Below the pieces are notes generated by a model that had not been told where the DNA came from, did no database searches, and saw nothing but the letters and a program-made list of their open reading frames with translations. From an uncultured Actinomycetota bacterium (GTDB taxonomy: Bacteria > Actinomycetota > Actinomycetes > Actinomycetales > Kineosporiaceae), in assembly GCA_963778845.1 (NCBI GenBank), contig CAVZVW010000009.1:1702206-1742205 (forward strand): 40,000 nucleotides of DNA. The letters run 5' to 3'. Positions 3,813 through 36,362 of the stretch are shown here, one piece after another; position 1 is the first letter of the stretch, and every line of letters begins with the position of its first letter. Made by a program: the position numbers and the translations under genes.

Positions 3813-4592
3813 GTGCTGCGAACAACCGGGCCGGCCGTCGTCCACCGGCGTCGCTCGGTGAGCAGCCCGCCCTCGACTCACGCACAGGGCCCCTACGAGC
3901 GGCCCCTCGGCGTCCACCCGCCCCTCGACCATCCCGCCTATGCCAGCACCCGGCTTCGACACCCCAGGCTCCCCCTGGTCCTTCTGCCGCACCGGCTGAC
4001 CGAGACGACCGGCCCGGTCTTCGGGCGATCCACCGTCACGCAAGCCGACGCCGATCTCACCACCGCGTTCGGTGGCGAGGCGATCGGCCAGCGCATCGTC
4101 GTCCACGGACGCGTGCTCGACGGCGGCGGCCGTGCCGTGCCGTGCACCCTCGTCGAGATCTGGCAGGCCAACGCTGCGGGGCGCTACCGCCACGACAACG
4201 ACCGCTGGTCGGCCCCGGTCGACCCCCACTTCCACGGCGGCGGACGGGTGATGACCGACGAGGCGGGCAGGTACGCGTTCACGACCGTCAAGCCCGGGGC
4301 CTACCCCTGGAAGAACCACCTCAACGCGTGGCGACCGGCGCACATCCACCTGTCGCTGTTCGGGCAGGCGTTCACGCAACGGCTGGTCACGCAGATGTAC
4401 TTCCCCGACGACCCGCTGTTCGACCAGGACCCGATCTTCCTGTCGGTGCCGGAGAAGGCGCGTGGCAGGCTGGTCGCAACGTACGACCATGCGGCGACCC
4501 TGCCGGAGTGGGCGCTCGGGTTCGCCTTCGACATCGTGCTTCGCGGGCGGGAGGGAACGCCCTTCGAGGCGCCCGGGGACGGCGATGACTGA
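3813..4592 (+). CDS. pcaH: Protocatechuate 3,4-dioxygenase beta subunit
   Basis: The ORF is open from 3774, but that ATG overlaps the pobA start codon, so a GTG at 3813 or 3858 is more plausible. Conserved core: GRVLDGGGRAVPCTLVEIWQANAAGRYRH...PGAYPWKNHLNAWRPAHIHLSLFGQAFTQRLVTQMYFPDDPL. Confidence 0.85.
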   Translation: MLRTTGPAVVHRRRSVSSPPSTHAQGPYERPLGVHPPLDHPAYASTRLRHPRLPLVLLPHRLTETTGPVFGRSTVTQADADLTTAFGGEAIGQRIVVHGRVLDGGGRAVPCTLVEIWQANAAGRYRHDNDRWSAPVDPHFHGGGRVMTDEAGRYAFTTVKPGAYPWKNHLNAWRPAHIHLSLFGQAFTQRLVTQMYFPDDPLFDQDPIFLSVPEKARGRLVATYDHAATLPEWALGFAFDIVLRGREGTPFEAPGDGDD

Positions 4593-5166
4593 CGACGCCG
4601 GCCCGCGCCGCATGCGCGGCGGCCCGACACCGGGCCTGACGCCGTCGCAGACCGTCGGACCGTTCCTGAGCATCGGCCTGCACTGGGACGACGGGCCGCA
4701 CGCCGTCCCAGACGGCACCGCCGGGGCGGTCCGGATCGGCGGCGTGCTGCTCGACGGAGCCGGCGACCCGGTCGGCGACGGGGTGGTCGAGACCTGGCAG
4801 GCCGACGCCGACGGTGCTTTCGCACCGCGCCCCGGGTTTCGCGGCCTCGCCCGCAGCCTCACCGGTGCCGACGGCACGTGGGAGGTGCTGACGGTGATGC
4901 CCGCACCGCTGCCCACCCCCGACGGCGAGGTCGAGGCGCCGCACCTGGACGTCTCGGTGTTCGCCCGCGGCCTGCTCGACCGGCTCGTGACCCGCGTCTA
5001 CTTCCCCGACCAGTCGGCGAACGACACCGACCCCGTGCTGCGCGCCGTCCCGCCGTCGCGGAGAGGAACGCTCGTCGCACGCGCCGTCCCCGGGGGCTAC
5101 CGCTTCGACATCCGGTTGCAGGGACACCAGGGCGGGGGCGACGAGACTGTCTTCTTCGACCTCTGA
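4585..5166 (+). CDS. pcaG: Protocatechuate 3,4-dioxygenase alpha subunit
   Basis: ATG at 4585 overlaps the pcaH stop (ATGACTGA). Sequence: MTDDAGP...LTPSQTVGPFLSIGL...VETWQADADG...PHLDVSVFARGLLDRLVTRVYFPD. Confidence 0.85.
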   Translation: MTDDAGPRRMRGGPTPGLTPSQTVGPFLSIGLHWDDGPHAVPDGTAGAVRIGGVLLDGAGDPVGDGVVETWQADADGAFAPRPGFRGLARSLTGADGTWEVLTVMPAPLPTPDGEVEAPHLDVSVFARGLLDRLVTRVYFPDQSANDTDPVLRAVPPSRRGTLVARAVPGGYRFDIRLQGHQGGGDETVFFDL

Positions 5167-5230
5167 CGGCTCGGGATCCGCAGCGGACGGCTGCGTACCG
5201 GCACCTGCGGCGCCGGGGCTCTTCGACGCC

Positions 5231-6472
5231 GTGTATGCCACACCGCAGGTGCTGGCGGCCACCGGCGACGCCGCATGGGTGCGTGCAATGCTCACCACGG
5301 AGGCCGCCCTTGCGCGTGCCGGCGCCGAGGTCGGCCTGGTGCCGCCGGGGTGCGCGGCCGACATCGTGGCCGCCTGCCGAACGGACCTGGTGGACGTCGC
5401 GCAGCTGGCTGCCGCTGCCGGCGCCGACGCCACCCCGGTCACCGCGCTGGTGCGTCGGTTGCGCGAGCTGGCAGGCCCGCGGGCGGCACGGTACGTGCAT
5501 CTCGGCGCGACCAGCCAGGACATCCTCGACTGCGCCCAGATGTTGGTGGCGCGATCGGCGATCGAGGAGGTGCTGGTCGACGCCGCTGAGGTGGCCCGGC
5601 TGCTGGCCGGGCTGGCCGCGGTCCACCGCGACGCCGAGCAGGTCGGTCGCACGCTGCTGCGGCAGGCCGCGGTCACGACGTTCGGGGCAGCGTGCGCGGC
5701 GCGGCTGGTGGCCGTCGACGAGGCGCGCCACCGGCTCGCCGACGTGAGCCGGCGCCGGCTCGCCGTGCAGCTCGGCGGGCCGGTCGGCGTCCTGGGCGGG
5801 CTCGGCCCGCGAGCCCTCGACCTGGCAGCCGCGCTGGCCCGGGAGCTCGGCCTGGCTGAGCCGGTGACGCCCTGGCACACCTCCCGCGGCAGGGTGGTCG
5901 AGGTCGCCGCCGCCGCCGGTGTCCTGGCCGGCGAGCTCGGCGCGGTCTCGGCCGACCTCGTGCTGCTCGCGTCGGTGGAGATCGGCGAGGTCGCACCGTC
6001 GCACCCGGGCGGGTCCTCGGCCATGCCGCACAAGCAGAACTCGGCACGAGCCGTGCTCGCGGTCGCGTGCACCCACCGGGTCCCGGGGCTGGTCGCCACG
6101 CTGATGGCGGGCATGCCGCAGCAGCTGCAGCGCGCCGCCGGGGCGTGGCAGGCGGAGTGGGGAACGCAGTCGAGCCTGCTGTGCCTGGTCGCGGCGAGCG
6201 CGCAGCACACCCGCGCGGCGCTGGACGGTCTTCATGTCGACACCGCGCGGATGGCCGACCACGTGGCTGAGCTACGCTCACTTGCCCGCTCGGGGTCGCT
6301 CGACGCGCAGACCTGGCTCGACCCCGGCACCGCCGGGCTGCTCGTGGACCGGGCCCTCCAGGCGCACGCGAACCTCGCCACACCCGGCAGCCCAGCAGAA
6401 GATCCGACCGACCGTACAGCAGCGGGCCTGACCGGCCGCACGGCCGACGACCCGGCCGGAGGCACCCGGTGA
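5231..6472 (+). CDS. pcaB: 3-carboxy-cis,cis-muconate cycloisomerase (fumarate-lyase superfamily)
   Basis: Carries the lyase signature GGSSAMPHKQNSARA and HLGATSQDILD. The first canonical start is GTG 5231. The conserved N-terminal LFDA lies just upstream of it in frame, so the true start is uncertain. Confidence 0.82.
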   Translation: MYATPQVLAATGDAAWVRAMLTTEAALARAGAEVGLVPPGCAADIVAACRTDLVDVAQLAAAAGADATPVTALVRRLRELAGPRAARYVHLGATSQDILDCAQMLVARSAIEEVLVDAAEVARLLAGLAAVHRDAEQVGRTLLRQAAVTTFGAACAARLVAVDEARHRLADVSRRRLAVQLGGPVGVLGGLGPRALDLAAALARELGLAEPVTPWHTSRGRVVEVAAAAGVLAGELGAVSADLVLLASVEIGEVAPSHPGGSSAMPHKQNSARAVLAVACTHRVPGLVATLMAGMPQQLQRAAGAWQAEWGTQSSLLCLVAASAQHTRAALDGLHVDTARMADHVAELRSLARSGSLDAQTWLDPGTAGLLVDRALQAHANLATPGSPAEDPTDRTAAGLTGRTADDPAGGTR

Positions 6473-7236
6473 CGGCGCGCCTGGGGCACGAGGTGGAGGG
6501 GAGCCTCGCGGGCGGCCCCGTGCTGGTGCTCGCGCCGTCGCTGGGCACCGACCGGGGGCTGTGGGCGCCGCAGCGCGCCGCCTTCGCGCAGCACTTCACC
6601 GTGGTGGCGCTGGACCACCGCGGCCACGGGGGCTCGGACGTACCCGAACCGCCCTACTCCCTGGCCGACGTCGCCGGCGACGTCCTGGCACTCCTGGACG
6701 AGCTCGGTGTCGCCCGGTTCAGCTTCTGCGGTCTGTCCCTCGGCGCCATGGTGGGCATGTGGGTGGCCTCACACGCGCCCGACCGGGTCGACAGGCTGGC
6801 CCTGTGCTGCACGTCGGCTCACCTGCCGCCGGCCCAGACCTGGCTGGACAGGGGCGCCGCCGTGCAGGCCGGCGGCATGACCGCGGTCGCCGACGCGGTC
6901 GTCGGGCGCTGGTTCACGCCGGATTTCTCCCGTGACGCCCCCCTCGTCGTCCAGGAGTGCCGCCAGATGCTCCTGAGCACCCCTCCCCTGGGCTACGCCG
7001 GGTGCTGCGCGGCCATCGCCGGCATGGATCTGCGGCCGAACCTGGCCGACATCGCGGCCCCGACCTTGGTGCTGGCGGGACAGCAGGACGCCGCGACTCC
7101 GCCCGAGCATGCCGAGCACCTCGCGGGGGGCATCGCGGGCGCTCGGCTTGCGGTCGTGGAGGGGTGCGCCCACCTGGCCATCCGGCAGCGCCCCGAGGAG
7201 TGCACCAGGCTGCTCCTGGACCACCTCTGCGGGTGA
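6469..7236 (+). CDS. pcaD: 3-oxoadipate enol-lactonase (alpha/beta hydrolase). Stand-alone, not fused to PcaC.
   Basis: GTGA overlap with the pcaB stop. 255 aa with nucleophile elbow GLSLGAMVG. Position after pcaB. Confidence 0.75.
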   Translation: MTARLGHEVEGSLAGGPVLVLAPSLGTDRGLWAPQRAAFAQHFTVVALDHRGHGGSDVPEPPYSLADVAGDVLALLDELGVARFSFCGLSLGAMVGMWVASHAPDRVDRLALCCTSAHLPPAQTWLDRGAAVQAGGMTAVADAVVGRWFTPDFSRDAPLVVQECRQMLLSTPPLGYAGCCAAIAGMDLRPNLADIAAPTLVLAGQQDAATPPEHAEHLAGGIAGARLAVVEGCAHLAIRQRPEECTRLLLDHLCG

Positions 7237-7300
7237 GCGCGAGCTCGTGCGGCGCGGCCGGCCCAGACAGCATGGGGCGTGGCTGGGGGACTCGACCGCA

Positions 7301-7318
7301 GGCCGGTCTAGACCGGCC
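7301..7318. terminator. Perfect 18-bp palindrome between convergent pcaD and the ferredoxin gene
   Basis: GGCCGGTCTAGACCGGCC is its own reverse complement. It overlaps the ferredoxin TAG stop (7308-7310). A hairpin could form on either transcript. Confidence 0.3.
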
Positions 7319-7559
7319 GGAGGTGCAAGGCCATGAGTGGGCAGGCGTCGACCGCGGCGGCGGCGTGCTCGACCAGGCCCGCCGGCACGCTGACCACCCC
7401 TCGGGCGTCGGTGGCGTCCGGCCTGCCCACCGGGTAGCCCCACGGGTCCTCGCGCAGCAGCTCCGGCAGGAGCTCGGTGCACAGGCCGCGCCCGTCGCAC
7501 CGGGTCCAGTCGACTCGCAGCCTCGCGGCGACGACGTTCCGGTTCGTGGTGGTGGTCAC
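7308..7559 (-). CDS. Small ferredoxin (single [Fe-S] cluster type)
   Basis: GTG at 7559 is preceded by GAGGAG. 83 aa: VTTTTNRNVVAARLRVDWTRCDGRGLCTELLPELLREDPWGYPV...AAAVDACPLMALHL (C-x5-C ... CP). This is the C-terminal part of the long track ORF 7308..8735; the upstream part of that ORF is not coding. Confidence 0.65.
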   Translation of the reverse strand: MTTTTNRNVVAARLRVDWTRCDGRGLCTELLPELLREDPWGYPVGRPDATDARGVVSVPAGLVEHAAAAVDACPLMALHLRPV

Positions 7560-7597
7560 GGGTGCTCCTCTTGCGTGGCTCGGGGTCGGTGGGTGGC

Positions 7598-7657
7598 GGG
7601 TAGGCGGGTCGTGGGTAGCCAGGTGGTGGGTAGGCGGGTCGCGGGTAGGCGGTGCAG
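7598..7657. repeat. Degenerate 15-bp tandem repeat x4 (GGGTAGGCGGGTCGY). G-rich on the plus strand.
   Basis: GGGTAG recurs at 7598, 7613, 7628 and 7643, an exact 15-bp period. The array lies in the spacer between the NuoF-like stop (7673) and the ferredoxin start (7559). Confidence 0.8.
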
Positions 7658-7672
7658 ACGCACCACCGCGGG

Positions 7673-8923
7673 TCAGTGCTCGACCAGACAGCGGCCCTCG
7701 AGGTGCGCCGACACGTCGTCGCCGAACGTGCGCAGGGCGCTGCGCAGCAGCCGGACCGTCCCGTCGGGGTGCTGGCAGGCACCGCGGCCGCAGACCAGCT
7801 CGGCGAGCCGGGCCAGGCGTGCCGGCAGCTGCGCGTCGGCCCGGCCCCGCGCGAGCAGGCTCATCGTCGACGCCATCGCCGGCAGCCCGTTCAGGCACGG
7901 GCCGCACTGCGCCGCGGTCTGAGCCGCGAGGTAGTCCACGATCCCGGCCGTCGCCTGCAGGCCGCAAGAACCCGACGGTAGCGCGACCACCACGCCCGCA
8001 CCGGGGCTCGCGCCCCACGGCGAGAGCCCTCTGCGCGACATCGCGGTGTCGAAGGCCTGGGGCATGGGCAGCCAGGCCCCGTGGTACCCGCCCACCAGCA
8101 CGGCGGACAGCGGACCATCGCTGCCTCCGGCCAGCTCGAGCAGCTGCCCGAGCGACGTGCCGTAGGCGGCCTCGACGACGCCCGGACGGCGCACCGCGCC
8201 GCTGAGCGTGGCCAGGAACGTCCCCGGCTGGTCGGCCTCGCCCGCACCGCGGAACCAAGCGGAGCCGTGGCGGGCGATGAGCGCGACATGCGCCAACGTC
8301 TCCACGTTCTGCACGAGGGTCGGTCGGCCACGCACGCCTGACTCCACGACCATGCGTGCCTTGAACCTCGGTAGCGCCGGCGCACCCTCCAGTGCGGCGA
8401 CCACCGCGGACTCCTCGCCCGCGACGAAGGTGTCCGGCGCCCGCAGCACCTCCACGCCAAGCCTGTCGTGGCCGCGCTCGCGCCGCTCGCGCACAGCAGC
8501 GCTCACGACCTCGAGTGCCCTCCCGTGTTCCCCGACGTACATGTAGGCCTCGCCCGCGCCCACAGCCTCGGCCGCCAGCTGGAGGCCGTCGAGCACCAGG
8601 TGCGGTGCGTTCACCAGCAGTGCAGCGTCCTTCGCGCTGGCGGGCTCGCCCTCGGCGCCGTTGGCCACCACGACAGCGGCACCGGACCGCCTCGACCCGC
8701 GCGCGGCGGCGCCGACCGCCGCCAGCTTGCGCCACGTGGGGAAGGCCGCACCGCCTCGGCCGGTGAGCCCCGCGGCCTCGATCTCATCCACCAGTGCCGG
8801 CCCCGGGTGCGGACAGACGCCGTGGCGCTGCAGATGGGCGTCGAGCCCGGGGGCGAGCGCCGCGGTCAGCCGGCCGAGGCCGGCCGCTGCCGTGCGGGAC
8901 CCCGTCGTCGAGATGGCGCTCAC
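7673..8923 (-). CDS. NuoF-like protein (NADH/FMN-binding with the complex I 51-kDa-type Fe-S region)
   Basis: GTG at 8923 forms a GTGA overlap with the upstream stop. Motifs: GLTGRGGAAFPTWRKL, VVANGAEGEPASAKD, QCGPCLNGLP, VCGRGACQHPDG. Confidence 0.8.
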   Translation of the reverse strand: MSAISTTGSRTAAAGLGRLTAALAPGLDAHLQRHGVCPHPGPALVDEIEAAGLTGRGGAAFPTWRKLAAVGAAARGSRRSGAAVVVANGAEGEPASAKDAALLVNAPHLVLDGLQLAAEAVGAGEAYMYVGEHGRALEVVSAAVRERRERGHDRLGVEVLRAPDTFVAGEESAVVAALEGAPALPRFKARMVVESGVRGRPTLVQNVETLAHVALIARHGSAWFRGAGEADQPGTFLATLSGAVRRPGVVEAAYGTSLGQLLELAGGSDGPLSAVLVGGYHGAWLPMPQAFDTAMSRRGLSPWGASPGAGVVVALPSGSCGLQATAGIVDYLAAQTAAQCGPCLNGLPAMASTMSLLARGRADAQLPARLARLAELVCGRGACQHPDGTVRLLRSALRTFGDDVSAHLEGRCLVEH

Positions 8924-9561
8924 CGGTGGCTCCTGACGGGAAGTGCCTGCAGGCGGGACGGCGACCTCGCGGGGTCCGGGACAGGCAGGGGCGCAGGAGC
9001 GTGAGTTCGCCGTCCGGCGACCTGGGCGAAAGTCGGCGCGACCCGCCACGACAGCGTCGCCGCCACGGTCGCGGCGCAGACCGCCGCCACAGCGGTCATC
9101 CACGGCGTGCCCGTGTCGGAGCCGGTGCCGATCCCGTGCAGCATCGCCAGGGGCCACGCGCCGTAGGCGAGCCAGTGGATGCCGCGCCAGGCGCGGTGAC
9201 CGATCCGGGCCCGCAGCACGCTGGTGGCGACGAGCGCGACGACCAGGTCGAGGCCGAGCGTGCCCAGGCCGAGCCACAACGGTCGGTAGCTGCCCGCGAA
9301 CGGCAGCACGAGGTCGACCAGTCTCAGCTGGGCGTAGGGGTCGAACAGCAGCGTGCCGACGTGGACGGCGAGGAAGACCACCGAGAGCAGCCCGGCGTTG
9401 CGGTGCACGGCCGACACGGCGAACCTCGGCAGGCCCGCGAGGACCCGTCCGGATCTGGTGGCGATGCCCAGCACGACCACGAGGCTCAGCAGCACCAGGG
9501 ACACCACACCCGAGCCTCGACCCAGGTACCACAGGGCGGCGGTGGCAGTGGCGGTAGTCAT
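8920..9561 (-). CDS. Ferric-reductase-like (MsrQ/FRD-type) polytopic membrane protein
   Basis: ATG at 9561 is preceded by GAGGAGG and forms an ATGA overlap with the apbE stop. 213 aa with several hydrophobic helices and conserved His residues (AVSAVHRNAGLL..FLAVHVGTLL...IHWLAYGAWPLAMLHGIGTG). Confidence 0.7.
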   Translation of the reverse strand: MTTATATAALWYLGRGSGVVSLVLLSLVVVLGIATRSGRVLAGLPRFAVSAVHRNAGLLSVVFLAVHVGTLLFDPYAQLRLVDLVLPFAGSYRPLWLGLGTLGLDLVVALVATSVLRARIGHRAWRGIHWLAYGAWPLAMLHGIGTGSDTGTPWMTAVAAVCAATVAATLSWRVAPTFAQVAGRRTHAPAPLPVPDPARSPSRLQALPVRSHR

Positions 9562-10580
9562 CGAACAGCCTCCTCGGGCCAGTCGGGGGTGGTGACGACC
9601 TCGCCGGCCGCGGTCACGAGGCGGGCCGGCACGCCGAGGGACCGCAGCCACGGCAACGCGGCTCGGCCACGCACGAGCGCCGCCGTGGTCAGGGTGTTGG
9701 CGGCCACGCAGGTGTGGGCGGCCGCGGTCACGCTCCGCCACACGGGGGCGACGGGCAGGCCGGTCGCGGGGTCGAGCACGTGGTGCATCTCGGCGCCGGC
9801 CTGGAGCCACCGGCGACGGACCGTGCTCGACGTCGCGATGGCCGCACCCGACGGGAGGAGGACCGTGCACGCGGGGTCGCCTGGGGTGTCCTGCACGAGC
9901 ACCTGCCAGCCTCCGCCGCGGGCTTGCCCCGCTGTGGCGATGTCGCCCCCGAGGCTCACCAGCACCCCGACACCCAGGCGCTGCGCCACCAGATGCGCGC
10001 ACTGGTCGGCCGCCGCCGCCTTCGCGGTCGCGCCGAGGTCCAGGACCGTCCCCGACGGCACACGCAGGCTGCGCCCGTCGAGGCGGACGCCGCGCCAGCC
10101 GCTGGCGGGGCGGTGGCTGATCCGCGAGAAGCCTCCGGCGCGGGCGACGGCGTCCGCTGCAGGGCGGGGCGTCGGGTCGGCCCGCGCCAGGTCGGCGAGG
10201 TCCCGGTCGTAGCCGATGCCGACCATGGCCGCCCCCACGGTCGGGTCGACGTCGCCGTCGGTGTTGCGAGCGGCCTCGAGGGCCACCGCGACCAGGTCGG
10301 CCAGCAGCGGGCCGACCGTCACGCTGCGACCGCCGGAGCGGTTGACAGCGGCCAGCTCGGAGTCGTCACGGAAGCGGCTCGCCGCCAGGTCGACCGCATC
10401 GAGGTGCTCGACGACGATCCGGTGTGCGGCAGCCAGCGCAGCCGGGTCGCAGACCACGATGCGCGCGGTGGTGCTCCAGAGAGCCCACTCGAGGGTGTCC
10501 GGGCCGGCCGGCGCCGTCTGTGCCGCCGGCGTCGTCTGGGCCGCCCAGGCCCCTTGTGCCACGAAGGCGGGTGCGCTCAC
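9558..10580 (-). CDS. apbE: FAD:protein FMN transferase (flavin transferase, ApbE family)
   Basis: 340 aa. ApbE-like throughout (...AASRFRDDSELAAVN...DPTVGAAMVGIGYDRD...LDLGATAKAAAADQ...LVSLGGDIATAG...). I see no obvious N-terminal signal peptide or lipobox. Confidence 0.8.
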   Translation of the reverse strand: MSAPAFVAQGAWAAQTTPAAQTAPAGPDTLEWALWSTTARIVVCDPAALAAAHRIVVEHLDAVDLAASRFRDDSELAAVNRSGGRSVTVGPLLADLVAVALEAARNTDGDVDPTVGAAMVGIGYDRDLADLARADPTPRPAADAVARAGGFSRISHRPASGWRGVRLDGRSLRVPSGTVLDLGATAKAAAADQCAHLVAQRLGVGVLVSLGGDIATAGQARGGGWQVLVQDTPGDPACTVLLPSGAAIATSSTVRRRWLQAGAEMHHVLDPATGLPVAPVWRSVTAAAHTCVAANTLTTAALVRGRAALPWLRSLGVPARLVTAAGEVVTTPDWPEEAVR

Positions 10581-10584
10581 GTCC

Positions 10585-10851
10585 TCACGACCCCGAGGTT
10601 GTGGCCTGCGAGGCCCCCGAGCCGGTCGCGAGCTGGGGCGACGTCGCGCTGCTCGTGGAGCCGGACGTCGAACCCGACGTCGTGCTCGACGTCGCCGAGC
10701 TGGAGCTGCCGGACATCGAGGCCGCCGTGGTCGCGGAGTGCCCGGCCGCGTACGCCATCCCCCCGGCGGCCGCCGTCCCGGCGACGGCGGCGGCGACGAG
10801 CCCGGCGGTCAGCCCGGCGATGCGACGCCTGCCCCGTTCGCGGCTGTTCAT
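10585..10851 (-). CDS. Small secreted Ser/Thr-rich protein with a twin-arginine-like signal peptide
   Basis: 88 aa: MNSRERGRRRIAGLTAGLVAAAVAGTAAAGGMAYAAG, followed by a roughly 50-aa S/T/G/A tract ending ...LATGSGASQATTSGS. Third codon positions are almost all G/C, consistent with real coding. It is the first gene of the apbE operon. Its stop lies 4 nt before the apbE GTG. Confidence 0.6.
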   Translation of the reverse strand: MNSRERGRRRIAGLTAGLVAAAVAGTAAAGGMAYAAGHSATTAASMSGSSSSATSSTTSGSTSGSTSSATSPQLATGSGASQATTSGS

Positions 10852-10948
10852 GGTGGTCCTCGCTCTCCTCGGCCCGGCCCCGGCCGGTGGCGACCGGAGG
10901 CTGCGGGTGGTGGTGATGACGACAGTGCCCGGCTCCCCGGTGGCCGCC

Positions 10949-10981
10949 CTGTGCTGTCTCTGTGGTTCGGCTGTGCCTGTG
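10949..10981. promoter_or_regulatory. Candidate response-regulator operator: CTGTG direct repeats at 11-bp phasing
   Basis: CTGTG starts at 10949, 10960 and 10971 (exact 11-bp spacing), plus 10977. The site is in the divergent region between the redox operon (start 10851) and the response regulator (start 11059/11068). Confidence 0.35.
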
Positions 10982-11058
10982 TCGGCGTCTGGTCCCCGCC
11001 AGATCGCACAGCCGGCTCACAGGAAGTGCTCGGACCCTGCCCAGTGGCCCACCGGAGC

Positions 11059-11865
11059 ATGAGGGGCATGACCACCACCAGCAGCGGCCGCTCCGCCACC
11101 TCACCAGGCGCGGGCGCCACCACGGCCGAGACCGCCCGCAAAGCCGCCTCCCGCACACCGCTGCGGCACCTCGACGGCACCCCCATCCGCGTGCTCGTGG
11201 TCGACGACGAGCCCAACCTCACCGAGCTGATGTCGATGGCCCTGCGCTACGAGGGCTGGGACGTCCGGACCGCGGCCGACGGCCGCACCGCGCTGCGGGT
11301 GGCCAAGGAGCACCGCCCGGACGTCGTCGTCCTCGACCGCATGCTTCCCGACGGTGACGGCCTCGACGTGCTGCGCCGCCTGCGGGCCCAGCAGGACGGC
11401 GTCCCCGTGCTCTTCCTCACGGCACGCGACGGCGTCGAGGACCGGGTCGCCGGCCTCACTGCAGGCGGCGACGACTACGTGGTCAAGCCGTTCAGCCTCG
11501 AAGAGGTCGTGGCGCGGCTGCGCGGCCTGGTGCGGCGCAACAGCCTTCTCGACGAGGCGTCGGATGCGGTGTTGACAGTCGGTGACCTGATGCTCGACGA
11601 GGACAGCCACGAGGTACGCCGGGCCGGCGTCTCGATCGCGCTCACAGCGACGGAGTTCGAGCTGTTGCGCTTCCTCATGCGCAACCCGCGGCGCGTGCTC
11701 AGCAAGGCTCAGATCCTCGACCGGGTCTGGAACTACGACTTCGGCGGCCAGGGCAACGTCGTCGAGCTGTACATCTCCTACCTGCGCAAGAAGATCGACG
11801 CCGGGAACGCGGCGATGATCCACACCGTGCGGGGTGTCGGGTATGTGCTGAAGCCGGCGAGCTGA
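11059..11865 (+). CDS. OmpR/PhoB-family response regulator
   Basis: Receiver domain RVLVVDDEPNLTELM...VVVLDRMLPDGDG...KPF, then a winged-helix output domain ...LTATEFELLRFLMRNPRRVLSKAQILDRVWNYDF...IHTVRGVGYVLK. An alternative start at ATG 11068 has GGAG 10 nt upstream. Confidence 0.88.
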   Translation: MRGMTTTSSGRSATSPGAGATTAETARKAASRTPLRHLDGTPIRVLVVDDEPNLTELMSMALRYEGWDVRTAADGRTALRVAKEHRPDVVVLDRMLPDGDGLDVLRRLRAQQDGVPVLFLTARDGVEDRVAGLTAGGDDYVVKPFSLEEVVARLRGLVRRNSLLDEASDAVLTVGDLMLDEDSHEVRRAGVSIALTATEFELLRFLMRNPRRVLSKAQILDRVWNYDFGGQGNVVELYISYLRKKIDAGNAAMIHTVRGVGYVLKPAS

Positions 11866-11948
11866 ACCCGGTCTGCTGAACCTTGACACCCCTGACCGTC
11901 GAGCACCCGACTCCCACGCGGACCACCGACCAAGCCCCGGAGGGGACC

Positions 11949-13580
11949 ATGAACGCTCGCTCACAGCGGTGGCGGCCCGGCCGCTGGCCGCTGCGCGTGC
12001 GGCTCGTGGTCGCGATGGTCGCGCTGCTGGCCGCGGTCAGCGGCGTCGTCGGCGTCGTCAGCGTCCTCGCCCTCGACCGCTTCCTGACCGACCGGCTGGA
12101 CGTCCAGCTGGCGCAGGCGCTCGACCGGTCGCGGCACGCCGACGGCCAGCCCCACGCTCCCGACAGCCGGGCTCAGCCCGGCGGGGTCCTGCAGCAGCCC
12201 GGCGGCGCCCCTCAGCGGCCCGACGGCCTCGCGCCGTCACCCGACGGTGACGGGCACGCCCCCGCGGGCCCGGACTTCCTGCTGGCGCCCGGGCAGGGTC
12301 AGGGAACCGTCGGGCTGCTGCTCGAGAACGGCCGCGTCACCGCGGCCGGTGTGCTCGACGGAACCGGACAGACGCAACCGCTCACGGCTTACCAGATGGC
12401 GGCCCTTGCCGCGCTGTCCACGTCGGGCCGCCCTGAGACCGTGGATCTCGGGCCTGGCCTCGGCCGGTACCGCGTCTTGGCCGCGGCTGTCGGTGACGGC
12501 CGCGTGCTGGTGACGGGCCTGCCGCTGCACGACGTGACCGCGACGGTCGTCCGGCTCGCGGTCGTCATCGCCGGGGTTGCCCTGCTCGGGCTGCTGGCGG
12601 CCGGGTTCGCGGGTTCGCTGATCATCCGGGTCAACCTGCGGCCGCTGCTGCGGATGGCCGCGACGGCGTCCCGGGTCGCCGAGCTGCCGCTGGACCGGGG
12701 AGAGGTCGCGCTGGCGCTGCGCGTCCCCGAGGCCGACACCGACCCTCGGACCGAGGTCGGCCAGGTGGGCGCCGCGCTCAACCGGATGCTGGGGCATGTC
12801 GCCCGTGCGCTCGCCGCCCGCCAGGCCAGCGAGGCACGCGTACGGCGGTTCGTCTCCGACGCCAGCCACGAGCTGCGCACGCCGCTGGCGTCCATCCGCG
12901 GCTATGCCGAGCTCACGCGCCGCGGCGGGGGGGAGGCCGCACCCGTGGTCGCGCACGCCCTCGCCCGGGTGGAGTCCGAGGCGGTGAGGATGTCCGGCCT
13001 CGTCGACGACATGCTTCTGCTGGCTCGCCTCGACGAGGGCCGCCCGCTCGACGCCGACCCCGTCGACCTGACCGCCATGGTGATCGACGCGGTGAGCGAC
13101 GCCCATGCCGCCGCGCCCCGGCACCGGTGGGCGCTGGACGTCCCGGAGGAGCCCGTGGTCGTGTCAGGCGACACCGCCCGGCTGCACCAGGTGGTCGCGA
13201 ACCTCCTCGCCAACGCCCGCGTGCATACCCCCGCCGGCACGACCGTCACCGTGAGCGTGACGGCGGACGGGCGCGAGGGGACCGACACTGGCCCGATGGC
13301 GAGACTTCGGGTCGAGGACGACGGGCCCGGGATCCCGGGCGACCTCGTCGACGACGTCTTCGAGCGCTTCGCCCGCGGCGACGCCTCTCGCGGGCGCTCG
13401 TCCGGCAGCACCGGGCTGGGCCTGGCCATCGTCAATGCCGTCGTGCACGCACATGAGGGGCGCACGGGCGTCACCAGCATTCCCGGGCACACGCGCTTCG
13501 ACGTCCACCTTCCTCTGCTCACACTCGCCGGCCCCACGAGCGACCCCGTTCCGCGAATCCCCGCGGCGTCGGTCGGGTGA
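11949..13580 (+). CDS. HAMP-domain sensor histidine kinase
   Basis: ATG at 11949 follows GGAGGGGA. Two TM segments flank a periplasmic loop of about 150 aa. H-box SHELRTPLASIRGYAEL. ATPase motifs LANARVHTP, DDGPGIP, GSTGLGLAIV. Confidence 0.88.
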   Translation: MNARSQRWRPGRWPLRVRLVVAMVALLAAVSGVVGVVSVLALDRFLTDRLDVQLAQALDRSRHADGQPHAPDSRAQPGGVLQQPGGAPQRPDGLAPSPDGDGHAPAGPDFLLAPGQGQGTVGLLLENGRVTAAGVLDGTGQTQPLTAYQMAALAALSTSGRPETVDLGPGLGRYRVLAAAVGDGRVLVTGLPLHDVTATVVRLAVVIAGVALLGLLAAGFAGSLIIRVNLRPLLRMAATASRVAELPLDRGEVALALRVPEADTDPRTEVGQVGAALNRMLGHVARALAARQASEARVRRFVSDASHELRTPLASIRGYAELTRRGGGEAAPVVAHALARVESEAVRMSGLVDDMLLLARLDEGRPLDADPVDLTAMVIDAVSDAHAAAPRHRWALDVPEEPVVVSGDTARLHQVVANLLANARVHTPAGTTVTVSVTADGREGTDTGPMARLRVEDDGPGIPGDLVDDVFERFARGDASRGRSSGSTGLGLAIVNAVVHAHEGRTGVTSIPGHTRFDVHLPLLTLAGPTSDPVPRIPAASVG

Positions 13581-33564: not shown

Positions 33565-34326
33565 TCAGGCGCGGCCGAGGATCAGGCTCATGGCCTCGGC
33601 GCGGGTGGCTGCATCGCGCAGCTGCCCTCGCACGGCCGAGGTGACCGTGCGCGACCCCGGCTTGCGCACCCCGCGCATCGTCATGCACATGTGCTCGCAC
33701 TCGATCACGACGATGACGCCACGCGGCTGCAGGATCGCCACGAGGGCGTCGGCCACCTGGCTCGTGAGCCGTTCCTGCACCTGGGGGCGCCGCGCGTAGA
33801 CGTCGACCAGCCTGGCCAGCTTGCTCAGGCCGGTGATGCGGCCGTCGGAGGCCGGGACGTAGCCGACGTGGGCGACGCCGTGGAAGGGCACGAGGTGGTG
33901 CTCGCAGCAGGAGAAGACCTCGATGTCCTTGACCAGCACCAGCTCGTCGTGCCCGAGGTCGAAGGTGGTCGTCAGCACGTCCTGCGGCTCCTGCCACAGG
34001 CCGGCGAACATCTCCGCGTAGGCACGTGCCACCCGCTGCGGGGTGCTGCGCAGGCCGTCGCGCTCGGGGTTCTCACCGATCGCCAGCAGGATCTCGCGAA
34101 CGGCGGCCTCGACGCGCCCCGCGTCGTAGGGCTGCCTTCGTGACGGCCCCGCCTCGACGGCCTCGCTCAGCGCAGCTCTCCCGTCGTGCCTGCCGGAGCC
34201 GTGCCGGCGGCCGGGGACGTCGCGTGCTCGGATGCGCCGTTGGACCCGCCGTTGAGCGCAGTGCGCTCGGCCGGGGTCAGAACCGGTGGGAGGTCGGAGA
34301 CCACGCGGCGGGCGCTGGACAACCAC
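33565..34326 (-). CDS. folE: GTP cyclohydrolase I
   Basis: [77 protein letters not shown]. The only canonical start is GTG 34326, which overlaps the ftsH 3' end by 160 nt. A homologue-like length of 201 aa would need CTG 34170. Confidence 0.85.
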
Positions 34327-36170
34327 ACCGGGCGTTCGGGACGCTTCACCACGGGCGCGAAGATCTTGGCGAGGTCGTCCTTGGCCAGCGTCTCGCGCTC
34401 GAGCAGCGCCAGCACGAGGCCGTCGAGGATGTCCCGGTTCTCCACGAGGATCTCCCAGGCCTCGTCGTGGGCGGCGTCGATCAGTCGACGGACCTCCTCG
34501 TCGACGACGCTGGCGACCTCTTCGGAGTAGTCGCGCTGGTGGCCGTAGTCACGCCCGAGGAAGACCTCGCCCTGGCTCTGACCGAGCTTGATGGCACCGA
34601 CCCGCTCCGACATGCCGAACTGGGTGACCATGCGACGTGCCAGCGTCGTGGCCTTCTCGATGTCGTTGCTCGCGCCGGTCGTGGGGTCGTGGAAGACCAG
34701 CTCCTCGGCCACCCGCCCGCCGAGGGCGAAGGCGAGCTGGTCGAGGATCTCGTTGCGCGTCGTGGAGTACTTGTCGTCGGTCGGCAGCACCATCGTGTAG
34801 CCCAGCGCCCGGCCACGCGGCAGGATCGTGACCTTGGTGACGGGCTCGGTGTGCCGCAACGCCGAGGCCACGAGGGCGTGCCCGCCCTCGTGGTAGGCGG
34901 TGATCTTCTTCTCCTTGTCGTTCATGATGCGCGTGCGCTTCTGCGGCCCGGCCACGACGCGGTCGATGGCCTCGTCGAGGGCGTGGTCGTCGATGAGGCG
35001 GGCGCCCGCTCGTGCCGTCAGCAGCGCCGCCTCGTTCAGCACGTTGGCCAGGTCGGCACCCGTGAAGCCGGGGGTGCGCCGGGCGACGGCCTTGAGGTCG
35101 ACGGCGGGAGCCATGGGCTTGCCCTTGGCGTGCACCTGAAGGATCTCGTGGCGCCCCCGCATGTCCGGCGGCTCCACCGCGATCTGCCTGTCGAAGCGGC
35201 CAGGACGCAGGAGGGCGGGGTCGAGGATGTCCGGACGGTTCGTCGCAGCGATCAGGATCACGTTGGTCTTGACGTCGAAGCCGTCCATCTCGACCAGCAG
35301 CTGGTTCAGCGTCTGCTCGCGCTCGTCGTGACCACCGCCCAGCCCGGCGCCACGGTGCCGGCCGACCGCGTCGATCTCGTCCACGAACACGATCGCCGGC
35401 GCGTTCGCCTTCGCCTGGTCGAACAGGTCGCGCACCCGGCTGGCGCCGACGCCCACGAACATCTCGACGAAGTCCGAGCCGGAGATCGAGTAGAAGGGGA
35501 CTGCAGCCTCCCCGGCCACCGCACGCGCCAGGAGCGTCTTGCCCGTGCCAGGAGGCCCGTAGAGCAGCACACCCTTGGGGATCTTGGCGCCGACCGCCTG
35601 GAACTTCGCCGGCTCGGCGAGGAACTCCTTGATCTCCTGGAGCTCCTCCACCGCCTCGTCCGCCCCCGCGACGTCGGAGAACGTGACCTTGGGCATGTCC
35701 TTGTTGACCAGCTTCGCCCGCGACTTGCCGAAGTTCATGACGCGCGACCCCCCGCCCTGCATCTGGCTCATGAGGAACCAGAAGAGGCCGAGGATCAGCA
35801 GCAGCGGCAGCACGGTGATCAACAGGCTGGAGATCCAGGACGACGTGGCAACGGAGTCGTCGAAGCCCTGGTCCGGCGGGTGGGCCTTGAGCAGGTCGAC
35901 GATCTGGACTCCGCGCGGCTCGACGTAGTACGCCATCACCCGGTTCGCGCCGTCGACGGTCTCGCCCTGCTTCAGCGTCAGCTCCAGGCGCTGGTCGCGG
36001 TCGATGATCGTGGCGCTGGCGACCTTGTCCTTCTGGATCAGGTCGAGGGCCTGCGAGGTGTCGATCTTGCTGTACCGGTTCGTGTTGAACAGGCTGGCGC
36101 CCACGAACACCACGGTCAGGGCCACGATCACCCACACCACGGGTCCGCGGAGGAGTCGCTTGATGTCCAT
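34167..36170 (-). CDS. ftsH: ATP-dependent zinc metalloprotease FtsH
   Basis: ATG at 36170 ([18 protein letters not shown]...). Walker [26 protein letters not shown], Zn site HEGGHAL. Low-complexity C-terminal tail. Confidence 0.93.
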
Positions 36171-36362
36171 CACCCCGGGCTGACGCCCGTCCTTCCTGAT
36201 CGTCGACACCTGTATCGAAGGTACACCGCCAGGCGTGGGGTGGGGCGCGCCCCGACACCGCACCGACGCGCTGCCGGACACCGTCGTTGACCTGAACGGC
36301 TCGCCCGCCCGCGGTGTTCCACACCCACCTCGCCGTGCTCAGCAGGAGCCCGGGCCGGTCCC

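Follow-up and report, generated by a model that had tools for sequence, protein, structure and literature searches.

What does an ApbE flavin transferase modify when no recognizable substrate gene is found beside its own? The question is raised by a 40,000-nucleotide stretch of DNA (hereafter the window) from contig CAVZVW010000009.1 of an uncultured member of the Kineosporiaceae (Actinomycetota). Inspection of its open reading frames (ORFs) revealed five minus-strand genes between positions 7308 and 10851, in the order small ORF, ApbE homologue, ferric-reductase-domain membrane protein (FRD), NuoF-like protein and small ferredoxin (Fdx). The features of this operon are as follows.

10851..10585, minus strand: small ORF of 88 amino acids (aa), ATG start with GAGGA 7 nucleotides (nt) upstream
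10580..9558, minus strand: ApbE homologue, 340 aa, GTG start; Pfam ApbE, E = 9.5e-47
9561..8920, minus strand: FRD (MsrQ/NOX-like), 213 aa; Pfam Ferric_reduct, E = 1.9e-09
8923..7673, minus strand: NuoF-like flavin/Fe-S protein, 416 aa; Pfam Complex1_51K, SLBB and NADH_4Fe-4S
7672..7560, minus strand: intergenic spacer between the NuoF-like and ferredoxin genes, 113 nt, with a 15-nt tandem repeat
7559..7308, minus strand: small ferredoxin, 83 aa, GTG start with GAGGAG upstream; Pfam Fer4_15, E = 2.9e-12

A preliminary description of this locus had regarded two parts of the operon, the 88-aa peptide and the signal-less ApbE, as atypical. Comparison with related loci reversed that view, and both proved to be conserved, defining parts of an operon family. 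The 88-aa peptide carries a C-terminal ApbE-type motif and therefore is probably the flavinylated acceptor, not a placeholder. From these sequence comparisons, we consider it moderately probable that the small protein is the ApbE substrate, that it is flavinylated in the cytoplasm and then exported, and that it serves as the extracytoplasmic acceptor of a di-haem NOX-like electron conduit.

A widespread operon family with a small ORF upstream of apbE

An alignment of NuoF-like homologues (A1) was used to retrieve 80 loci from species-representative genomes, and the gene order of each locus was mapped by tblastn with the window proteins. At least 585 species-level genomes matched (relatives were encoded in 585 of the first 600 candidate stretches), and all related loci recovered were actinobacterial. 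Several hundred actinobacterial species, at the least, carry the operon family. Its hosts include Streptomyces, Amycolatopsis, Actinoplanes, Nocardia, Rhodococcus, Mycolicibacterium, Microbacteriaceae, Streptacidiphilus, Frankia, Gaiellales and Solirubrobacterales. The order ApbE, FRD, NuoF-like protein and Fdx was found in nearly all of the 80 loci, which come from different species, and the intergenic distances were tight; Fdx lay downstream of the NuoF-like gene in 79 of the 80. The recurrence of the same order in nearly all of these loci is far from chance. Within the window, the chaining of the five genes by short overlaps and a 4-nt gap was found as it had been described: the TGA codon of the small ORF is followed by a 4-nt gap and then ApbE, ApbE and FRD share an ATGA overlap, and FRD and the NuoF-like gene share a GTGA overlap. 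Third-position GC content was 0.90 to 0.96 across the five ORFs in these frames, with 0.94 for the 88-aa ORF; the GC content of the window is high (0.66 to 0.78 in 1-kb segments). Pfam and NCBIfam analyses also supported the domain assignments that had been made by reading, namely ApbE, Ferric_reduct, Complex1_51K/SLBB/NADH_4Fe-4S and a ferredoxin (Fer4_15).

Equivalents of the small ORF were sought as plus-strand ORFs with an uncharged stretch and the C-terminus [ST][GSAT][GA]S. They were detected in 67 of the 80 loci, against 4 of 14,118 background ORFs. In every locus with a complete adjacent ApbE gene (62 of 62), the small ORF was immediately upstream, ending at or overlapping the ApbE start. 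In the closest relative (L081), the genome's own annotation calls the small ORF as an 80-aa gene with no Pfam match, and no Pfam or NCBIfam family match was obtained for the small protein, including in a family-level search.

Thirteen loci gave no small-ORF match; four of them have variant tails (ITIGS, ISRGS twice and SGATS) and four run into contig ends. L005, L033 and L039 lack both ApbE and the small ORF, L038 is rearranged, and L056 looks degraded. At positions 6766-7908 of L056, both the small ORF and FRD are apparently frameshifted (three FRD high-scoring segment pairs in different frames), and this copy of the operon is possibly decaying or the product of an assembly error. An insertion splits the operon in L043 and L078, where the small ORF remains with ApbE. 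In L022 (Sinomonas, 7088-7399) and L052 (uncultured actinobacterium, 6242-6553), the small ORF lies directly upstream of FRD and the locus has no ApbE.

The small protein ends in a motif that resembles an ApbE flavinylation site

Two regions of the small protein are relevant to its proposed function.

10747..10851, minus strand: signal peptide, residues 1-35, comprising R-E-R-G-R-R-R, an uncharged A/G/V/L/T stretch, and A-Y-A before the predicted cleavage site
10588..10641, minus strand: conserved C-terminal block, S-P-Q-L-A-T-G-S-G-A-S-Q-A-T-T-S-G-S

Signal peptide calls were made by inspection and with simple scripts. The protein had been described as a Ser/Thr-rich peptide with a twin-arginine translocation (Tat) signal, and inspection agreed with this: RRR is followed by the uncharged stretch, A-Y-A and then a Ser/Thr-rich tail. 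Among 72 family members, the n-region contains twin arginines (RR) in 51 (71%) and KR, RK or RxR in 9 more, AxA is present in 53, and the uncharged stretch has a median length of 23 aa. The composition after the signal is 32% Ser, 16.5% Thr, 14% Gly and 10% Ala, with no Cys and almost no aromatic residues. The signal-like region together with the Ser/Thr-rich composition suggests that the small protein is exported and intrinsically disordered; its length varies among members. Mycobacterial small proteins (L016, 5982-6494; L018, 6051-6476) have a linker rich in Pro, Thr and Ala and not in Ser, and their tails read N-Y-S-P-[H/Q]-I-T-I-S-R-G-S, in which the terminal Gly-Ser is kept and the remaining motif is lost.

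The minimal flavinylation motif recognized by ApbE comprises seven residues, D-x-x-[S/T]-G-A-[S/T], with flavin mononucleotide (FMN) attached to the last (PMC12052999). Analysis of 61 small-protein tails revealed a C-terminus that lines up with this motif position by position, with the family consensus [H/Q/D]-[A/G]-x-[S/T]-[G/S]-[G/A]-S-COOH. The terminal residue (Ser88 in the window) is Ser in 61 of 61, encoded by TCG in 29, TCC in 19 and TCA in 13. Position -2, next to it, is Gly in 49 and Ala in 11, with all four Gly codons in use; position -3 is Gly in 35 and Ser in 16, position -4 is Ser in 46 and Thr in 14, position -5 is Thr in 36, position -6 is Ala in 39, and position -7 is His in 20, Gln in 12 and Asp in 8. 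Six members end exactly in D-x-T-S-G-A-S (Streptomyces L061, L068, L070 and L076; L077; and Streptosporangiaceae L066), and these tails match the minimal ApbE motif, in which the last residue is the acceptor (PMC12052999). Among the 72 members, the tail classes were [ST]GA[ST] in 10, [ST]GGS in 33 and [ST]SGS in 19. Conservation also reaches further into the protein, where alignment A4 gave the longer block P-x-[L/V]-x-x-G-x-G-x-S-[H/Q]-A-x-[S/T]-x-G-S. In the window, the tail heptapeptide is Q-A-T-T-S-G-S (10588-10608), and a canonical internal S-G-A-S is found 7 residues upstream of the terminal motif.

Published work indicates that such a site could be used. Short flavin tags perform best when placed at the end of a protein, and some ApbEs are cytosolic (PMC12052999); a truncated ApbE fully modifies flavin-tagged proteins in the Escherichia coli cytoplasm (PMC9400968); and FMN_red proteins carry unstructured C-terminal extensions that are flavinylated (PMC11334425).

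Several other origins of the motif were considered and rejected. GGAG occurs within the last 21 nt in only 18 of 61 members, and so the ApbE ribosome-binding site cannot account for the tail motif; a Shine-Dalgarno artefact is also ruled out by the use of four Gly and three Ser codons and by conservation that extends over 7 to 18 residues. Compositional chance was excluded since the last four residues would be expected in about 3% of cases from the composition of the linker and were observed in 94%, and since so few background ORFs match. ApbE target sites inside other operon proteins were ruled out as well: inspection revealed no [ST]GA[ST] in the four other proteins of the operon, and none of their invariant Ser or Thr residues lay within such a motif in the alignments.

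ApbE has no signal peptide, and no FMN-bind partner is encoded nearby

The ApbE homologue matched PF02424 with 160 bits, and about 300 residues could be aligned with the structures 3pnd, 1vrm, 4xdt and 6nxi. The preliminary description had found no obvious export signal in this protein. This was confirmed by inspection, as the N-terminus (MSAPAFVAQGAWAAQTTPAAQ...) has neither a charged n-region nor a hydrophobic core, and it extends to the 62 orthologous loci with a complete adjacent ApbE, in every one of which this protein is signal-less and starts 10-25 residues before the domain start W-x-W-S-T-x-x-R-V-V-V-T-D-P. Members of this clade are 295-397 aa long (mostly 303-340 aa) with short, nonhydrophobic N-termini, and homologues in the databases are single-domain proteins. 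Invariant elements of the clade include DLGATAKA, GGD, ATSS, HH and P271. In Vibrio cholerae ApbE, the catalytic His is His257, in the motif H-H-I-x-D-P (PMC12052999); the motif is present here as M-H-H-V-L-D-P, and H266 and H267 are invariant in 25 clade members.

The apparent lack of a protein with an FMN-binding domain was likewise borne out. None of the five window proteins matched PF04205 in Pfam searches, and no FMN-bind partner was found in the window or in the 80 loci; a canonical partner in orthologous loci, which the preliminary description had named as grounds for refutation, was thus not seen in these 80. Over the whole 40 kb, D..[ST]GA[ST] occurs only once, in a 723-aa ORF (34167..36338) that is unrelated and was labelled FtsH-like from reading alone. 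Among 1,132 ORFs called in the 80 loci, the motif occurred four times, twice in ApbE itself, once in an EAL-domain-like stretch (a label from reading alone) and once in one large protein; no FMN-bind-type ORF with D..[ST]GA[ST] was among them. All-against-all clustering of the same 1,132 ORFs detected no conserved neighbours other than two-component genes. No MsrP, VIT1 or other terminal enzyme was conserved within 8 kb on either side in the 80 loci. No conserved terminal reductase or oxidase was found beside the operon in these loci; the two-component genes are the sole recurrent neighbours.

The membrane protein, the NuoF-like protein and the ferredoxin form a candidate electron pathway

The FRD matched PF01794 with 38.0 bits, above the cut-off of 28. 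Four His residues (H53, H67, H129 and H142) are invariant in 74 orthologues (alignment A2), with 13 and 12 intervening residues within the pairs, and the pairs are located on predicted helices 46-73 and 122-146. This pattern predicts two bis-His haem sites in a NOX-type di-haem arrangement. The positively charged loops 37-47 and 116-124 and the C-terminal tail fit an N-out, C-in topology by the positive-inside rule, and in this topology the inner haem would be bound by H53/H129 and the outer by H67/H142. An AlphaFold2 model (mean pLDDT 71.7, pTM 0.51) contains five helices, at 3-37, 46-73, 94-115, 122-146 and 153-174, where solved members of the ferric reductase domain superfamily show a six-helix fold. 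A structure-based family assignment was dropped in view of this pLDDT and of the lack of a significant PDB match in Foldseek, and a PDB sequence search with FRD also gave no match. Source annotations call the homologues methionine sulfoxide reductase heme-binding subunit MsrQ/YedZ or ferric reductase-like, and these are transferred names. The FRD of L052 is extended at its C-terminus by about 200 aa, among them a low-complexity Gly/Ser/Thr-rich tail.

Pfam analysis of the NuoF-like protein revealed Complex1_51K (E = 1.3e-33), NADH_4Fe-4S (E = 3.2e-14) and SLBB (E = 7e-07), and the protein aligned with Thermus thermophilus Nqo1 (2fug) at E = 8.7e-54. The segments G-R-G-G-A-A-F-P-T and A-G-E-E-S-A align with Nqo1 motifs and do not vary among 19 homologues. 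In place of the GAGAY loop, the window protein has A-P-D-T-F (A-P-D-x-F), and the first Cys of the cluster N3 motif is Ala (A-A-Q-C-G-P-C). C320, C340, C343, C383, H385 and C412 are invariant; of these, C320, H385 and C412 are additional to the N3 motif. Cluster ligation and nucleotide preference may differ from those of NuoF. The NCBIfam nuoF_fam score was 214 against a cut-off of 559, for which reason we refer to the protein as NuoF-like and not as a NuoF equivalog, and a gene for the NuoE partner is not in the operon.

The ferredoxin is of the single-cluster type, with three Cys residues (C-x5-C...C-P) and Arg where the fourth ligand would stand, a pattern from which we infer that it probably carries a [3Fe-4S] cluster. 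The spacer that precedes its gene is repeat filled, as had been noted: a 15-nt unit is repeated 4.7 times at 7583-7652 with 80% matches (consensus GGGTAGGCGGGTCGC on the plus strand), and the repeat is C-rich on the mRNA strand. Because projection from homology puts the gap between the NuoF-like gene and Fdx at less than 60 nt in 77 of 79 orthologous loci, the repeat looks like a local expansion.

A proposed route for the flavin and for electrons

The preliminary description had proposed a conduit from cytoplasmic NAD(P)H to the outside. Its domains and the general idea are backed by homology, and the idea agrees with a published model, but the small peptide, which had been listed as a stand-in for a missing acceptor, is probably the acceptor itself. 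We infer the following route for the flavin and for the electrons. The signal-less ApbE would act in the cytoplasm, moving FMN from flavin adenine dinucleotide (FAD) to the hydroxyl group of the C-terminal Ser of the small protein. Export of the modified peptide would follow translation and use Tat in most lineages, with signal cleavage at A-x-A. A cytoplasmic ApbE combined with a substrate that mostly has a twin-arginine signal suggests that the cofactor is attached before export, which is the usual logic of the Tat pathway; such pre-export flavinylation would dispense with the export of FAD. On the electron side, the NuoF-like protein, with FMN and a 4Fe-4S cluster and aided by the ferredoxin, would take electrons from NAD(P)H or from the ferredoxin pool and pass them to the inner haem of the five-helix FRD. 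They would cross the membrane from the inner to the outer haem (H53/H129 to H67/H142) and reduce the FMN on the C-terminal Ser of the exported peptide, which would take the place of a folded FMN-bind domain. The long Ser/Thr-rich linker could allow the flavin, whether mobile or tethered, to carry one or two electrons within the cell envelope, and these might go on to iron, oxygen, quinones or envelope enzymes. In many lineages, the adjacent two-component system would control expression. The narrower proposition, that the peptide is a natural flavin-tagged disordered protein (a Ser/Thr-rich pre-protein of 75-180 residues) that is modified before export and acts as a flavin shuttle for the conduit, strikes us as evenly poised between right and wrong.

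A number of observations weigh against this reading. The window tail and those of most members depart from the canonical motif: the window ends in T-S-G-S, the residue at -1 to the acceptor is Gly and not Ala in 49 of 61 members, the residue at -2 is Ser in 16 of 61, and Asp occurs six residues before the acceptor in only 8 of 61, the window having Gln82. In experiments, changing the Asp of the motif to Ala had minor effects, and in a model substrate changing Gly to Ala or Ala to Val each left about 50% flavinylation (PMC12052999). The enzyme is also unusual. Asn295, invariant in the clade, replaces the Asp of A-D-x-x-x-T (A-N-T-L-T-T in the window, with T299 kept), and the clade has A-T-S-S-T in place of A-T-S-G-x-Y. 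In Treponema pallidum Ftp structures, the Asp of A-D-x-x-x-T reportedly ligates Mg2+. Since Asn stands at this position, the chemistry of the clade may differ; the two substitutions may point to altered metal or substrate handling. Twin arginines are absent from 29% of the small proteins, and Tat is thus not a universal export route. The AlphaFold2 model of FRD is of moderate quality, and its top Foldseek match, SpNOX (8qq7), is not significant (E = 0.31, TM-score 0.40). With the GAGAY loop and one canonical cluster Cys missing from the NuoF-like protein, the use of NADH is not certain. Finally, a gene for a terminal acceptor is not conserved near the operon, and we found no precedent for the export of a preflavinylated peptide.

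Some of these observations could be accommodated if the small protein were an unflavinylated accessory or envelope subunit of FRD, for example a docking, stabilizing or glycosylated spacer element, and if ApbE acted otherwise, by flavinylating an unlinked FMN-bind protein, by binding FAD, or as an FAD pyrophosphatase that supplies FMN to the NuoF-like protein. Most tails are noncanonical, with Gly for Ala before the terminal Ser, Asn295 occupies the canonical Asp position, ApbE homologues with pyrophosphatase activity exist (T. pallidum Ftp; PMC4767422), and in L022 and L052 the small ORF stands beside FRD without ApbE. It is harder to reconcile with the fact that the small ORF is strictly paired and translationally coupled with ApbE in all 62 loci, with the perfect D-x-T-S-G-A-S at the homologous position in six members and the invariant terminal Ser, and with the lack of any alternative candidate substrate in the 80 loci; we regard this explanation as unlikely. 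Were the small protein a functionless ORF, serving as a leader for translational coupling of ApbE or representing the N-terminal part of a frameshifted Tat-signal-ApbE fusion, its low complexity, the lack of a family match and its position 4 nt from the ApbE start would be explained, and a fusion would supply the missing export signal of ApbE. This idea is very improbable given the third-position GC of the ORF, the conservation of its N-terminal signal-like region and its C-terminal block across orders, the retention of the terminal Ser even where start and stop codons do not overlap (TCC TGA N ATG), and its presence without ApbE in the two loci just mentioned. The fusion variant was ruled out, as the two are separate ORFs in different frames in 62 of 62 loci and ApbE homologues in the databases have a single domain.

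The compartment of flavinylation could also differ from the one proposed above. Folded, FAD-loaded ApbE might be carried through the Tat pathway bound to the C-terminal block of the small protein and, once outside, flavinylate this protein or others. Such hitchhiking would suit the twin arginines seen in 71% of the small proteins, the stop and start codons that overlap or adjoin and so suggest 1:1 production, an 18-residue conserved block that exceeds a minimal tag, and the extracytoplasmic location of most characterized bacterial ApbEs (PMC12052999). We nevertheless think it improbable, because 29% of the small proteins have no RR, a long disordered linker is odd for a passenger carrier, turnover outside would have no FAD supply, and some loci have the small ORF without ApbE. 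Just as doubtful, in our estimate, is the notion that the operon supplies electrons in the manner of MsrQ to a periplasm-equivalent enzyme encoded elsewhere, for repair (MsrP-like) or for the reduction of iron, or runs in the reverse direction, from outside to inside, with the peptide as an adaptor. The names given to the homologues (methionine sulfoxide reductase heme-binding subunit, YedZ) and the link of MsrQ-like clusters to iron assimilation via VIT1 (153 clusters; PMC8238504) speak for it. Against it, the 8-kb flanks of the 80 loci contain no conserved MsrP, VIT1 or other terminal enzyme, the names are transferred annotations, and the four invariant haem-ligand His residues of FRD are of the NOX type. 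E. coli MsrQ differs from the NOX-type four-His haem ligation.

Relation to known flavinylation and electron transfer systems

The electron conduit architecture is not new, as it is a published hypothesis for MsrQ-like clusters with a NuoF-like protein. Méheust et al. (2021) reported that MsrQ-like flavinylation clusters are widespread in Actinobacteria and typically contain apbE and an FMN-bind gene (PMC8238504). In 31 of these clusters, a NuoF-like protein (PF10589) was present and was proposed to feed electrons from NAD(P)H to the PF01794 cytochrome (PMC8238504). The operon described here resembles this NuoF-like subtype in having ApbE beside a PF01794 cytochrome and a PF10589 protein, in being actinobacterial, and in the proposed direction from cytosolic NAD(P)H to an extracytosolic flavin. 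It also agrees with the survey's definition of PF01794 within five genes of ApbE, FMN-bind, DUF2271 or DUF3570, since FRD and ApbE are adjacent with a 4-nt overlap. It differs in that a small disordered protein occupies the substrate position, the typical FMN-bind gene (PF04205) being absent from the five proteins, the window and the 80 loci, and in that ApbE has no signal. The survey retained a cluster only when a signal peptide or lipobox was predicted in ApbE, FMN-bind, DUF2271 or DUF3570 (PMC8238504); in the present operon, ApbE is the sole gene of these types and is signal-less by inspection. Because of this filter, the operon family was largely left out of the survey (PMC8238504), which counted 31 NuoF-like clusters against the at least 585 matching genomes found here. 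The survey authors also stated that some ApbE substrates are still unidentified (PMC8238504). We found no mention of such a small protein in PMC8238504, its 2024 follow-up or a 2025 ApbE review (PMC12052999), and no small flavinylated actinobacterial peptide or Tat-exported ApbE substrate in searches of an open-access library. The combination of a conserved signal-less ApbE with a small protein that ends in a flavin-tag-like motif appears to be new.

The closest likeness to the terminal motif is an engineered one. In the Flavin-tag of Tong et al. (PMC9400968; PMC12052999), a short unstructured terminal D-x-x-[S/T]-G-A-[S/T] suffices for modification in the cytoplasm, and six family tails are identical to it. 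That tag, however, is synthetic and fused to folded proteins, and its tested version F1 has three residues after the acceptor (GVDGLSGATLTS). Here a natural, disordered and exported protein would have its acceptor as the final residue, and G/S replaces the A/G of the tag in most members.

FRD resembles MsrQ/Fre and NOX as a cytochrome with the 13/12 bis-His spacing and, in structure, comes nearest to SpNOX (8qq7), although the match is weak. The pair MsrQ and Fre of E. coli is described as a two-component NOX-like system in which the cytochrome is reduced from the cytoplasm by an NAD(P)H-dependent flavoprotein. Unlike these systems, the operon encodes a separate NuoF-like Fe-S flavoprotein and a ferredoxin, with no fused FNR-type domain or Fre, and FRD has five predicted transmembrane helices; the proposed outside acceptor would be a covalent flavopeptide, as opposed to O2 or MsrP. 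The Listeria monocytogenes system FmnB/PplA/Ndh2/EetAB is comparable in that it conveys electrons in a Gram-positive bacterium from cytosolic NADH to wall-spanning flavinylated carriers (PMC9973259; PMC11334425), and multiflavinylated beads-on-a-string proteins are also covalently flavinylated extracytoplasmic carriers (PMC11334425). In Listeria, FmnB is an extracytoplasmic lipoprotein fed by exported flavin, the carrier PplA contains folded FMN-bind domains, and quinones serve in the membrane step, whereas here the membrane step would use a di-haem cytochrome and ApbE is apparently cytoplasmic.

The known targets of ApbE are folded domains (FMN-bind, NqrB/RnfD, DUF2271, DUF3570, Flavodoxin_4 and FMN_red). 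If the proposed route is correct, the small protein would be a structurally new type of ApbE substrate that lacks a folded domain and has its acceptor at the extreme C-terminus. It would also be the first case of flavinylation before export and would explain part of the genomes with an orphan ApbE. By modifying first and exporting afterwards, a Gram-positive cell would avoid exporting FAD. The operon would then constitute a minimal, compact NAD(P)H-to-envelope electron module in aerobic soil actinomycetes, which bears on iron acquisition, generation of reactive oxygen species, extracellular electron transfer and bioelectrochemical engineering.

Regulation and flanking genes

Upstream of the operon, Pfam analysis identified a divergent two-component system.

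10852..11058, no strand assigned: divergent promoter region with CTGTG-N6-CTGTG boxes, a candidate operator of the adjacent OmpR-type regulator
11059..11865, plus strand: OmpR-family response regulator
about 11946..13580, plus strand: HAMP/HisKA/HATPase sensor kinase, start uncertain (the ORF opens at 11883)

The suggestion that the operon is regulated by a two-component system held only in part. The divergent regulator and kinase are present here, but an orthologous regulator (at least 56% identity) lies within 4.5 kb of the operon in only 15 of the 80 loci, and a different OmpR-type regulator in 14 more. Pattern scans for sigma-70-like promoters and intrinsic terminators found none within 7100-11200. 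The promoter region contains three tandem CTGTG half-sites with 11-bp spacing at 10949-10975 (plus strand) and an inverted copy at 11007-11022 (reverse complement). Across 60 loci, the 350 nt preceding the small ORF contained exact CTGTG-N6-CTGTG boxes at a density of 0.43 per kb, an enrichment of about 40-fold over the 0.011 per kb found elsewhere (9 copies versus 11 in 966 kb). The exact box is found in 7 loci only, and these are not confined to loci with the orthologous regulator.

On the other side of the operon, convergent plus-strand genes at 4462-7236 resemble a protocatechuate/beta-ketoadipate branch. They are not conserved beside the operon elsewhere, and a functional link is not evident. 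The group includes a Lyase_1 gene (5231-6472) and an alpha/beta hydrolase gene (6469-7236) that overlaps it by 4 nt, with a possible dioxygenase subunit encoded upstream.

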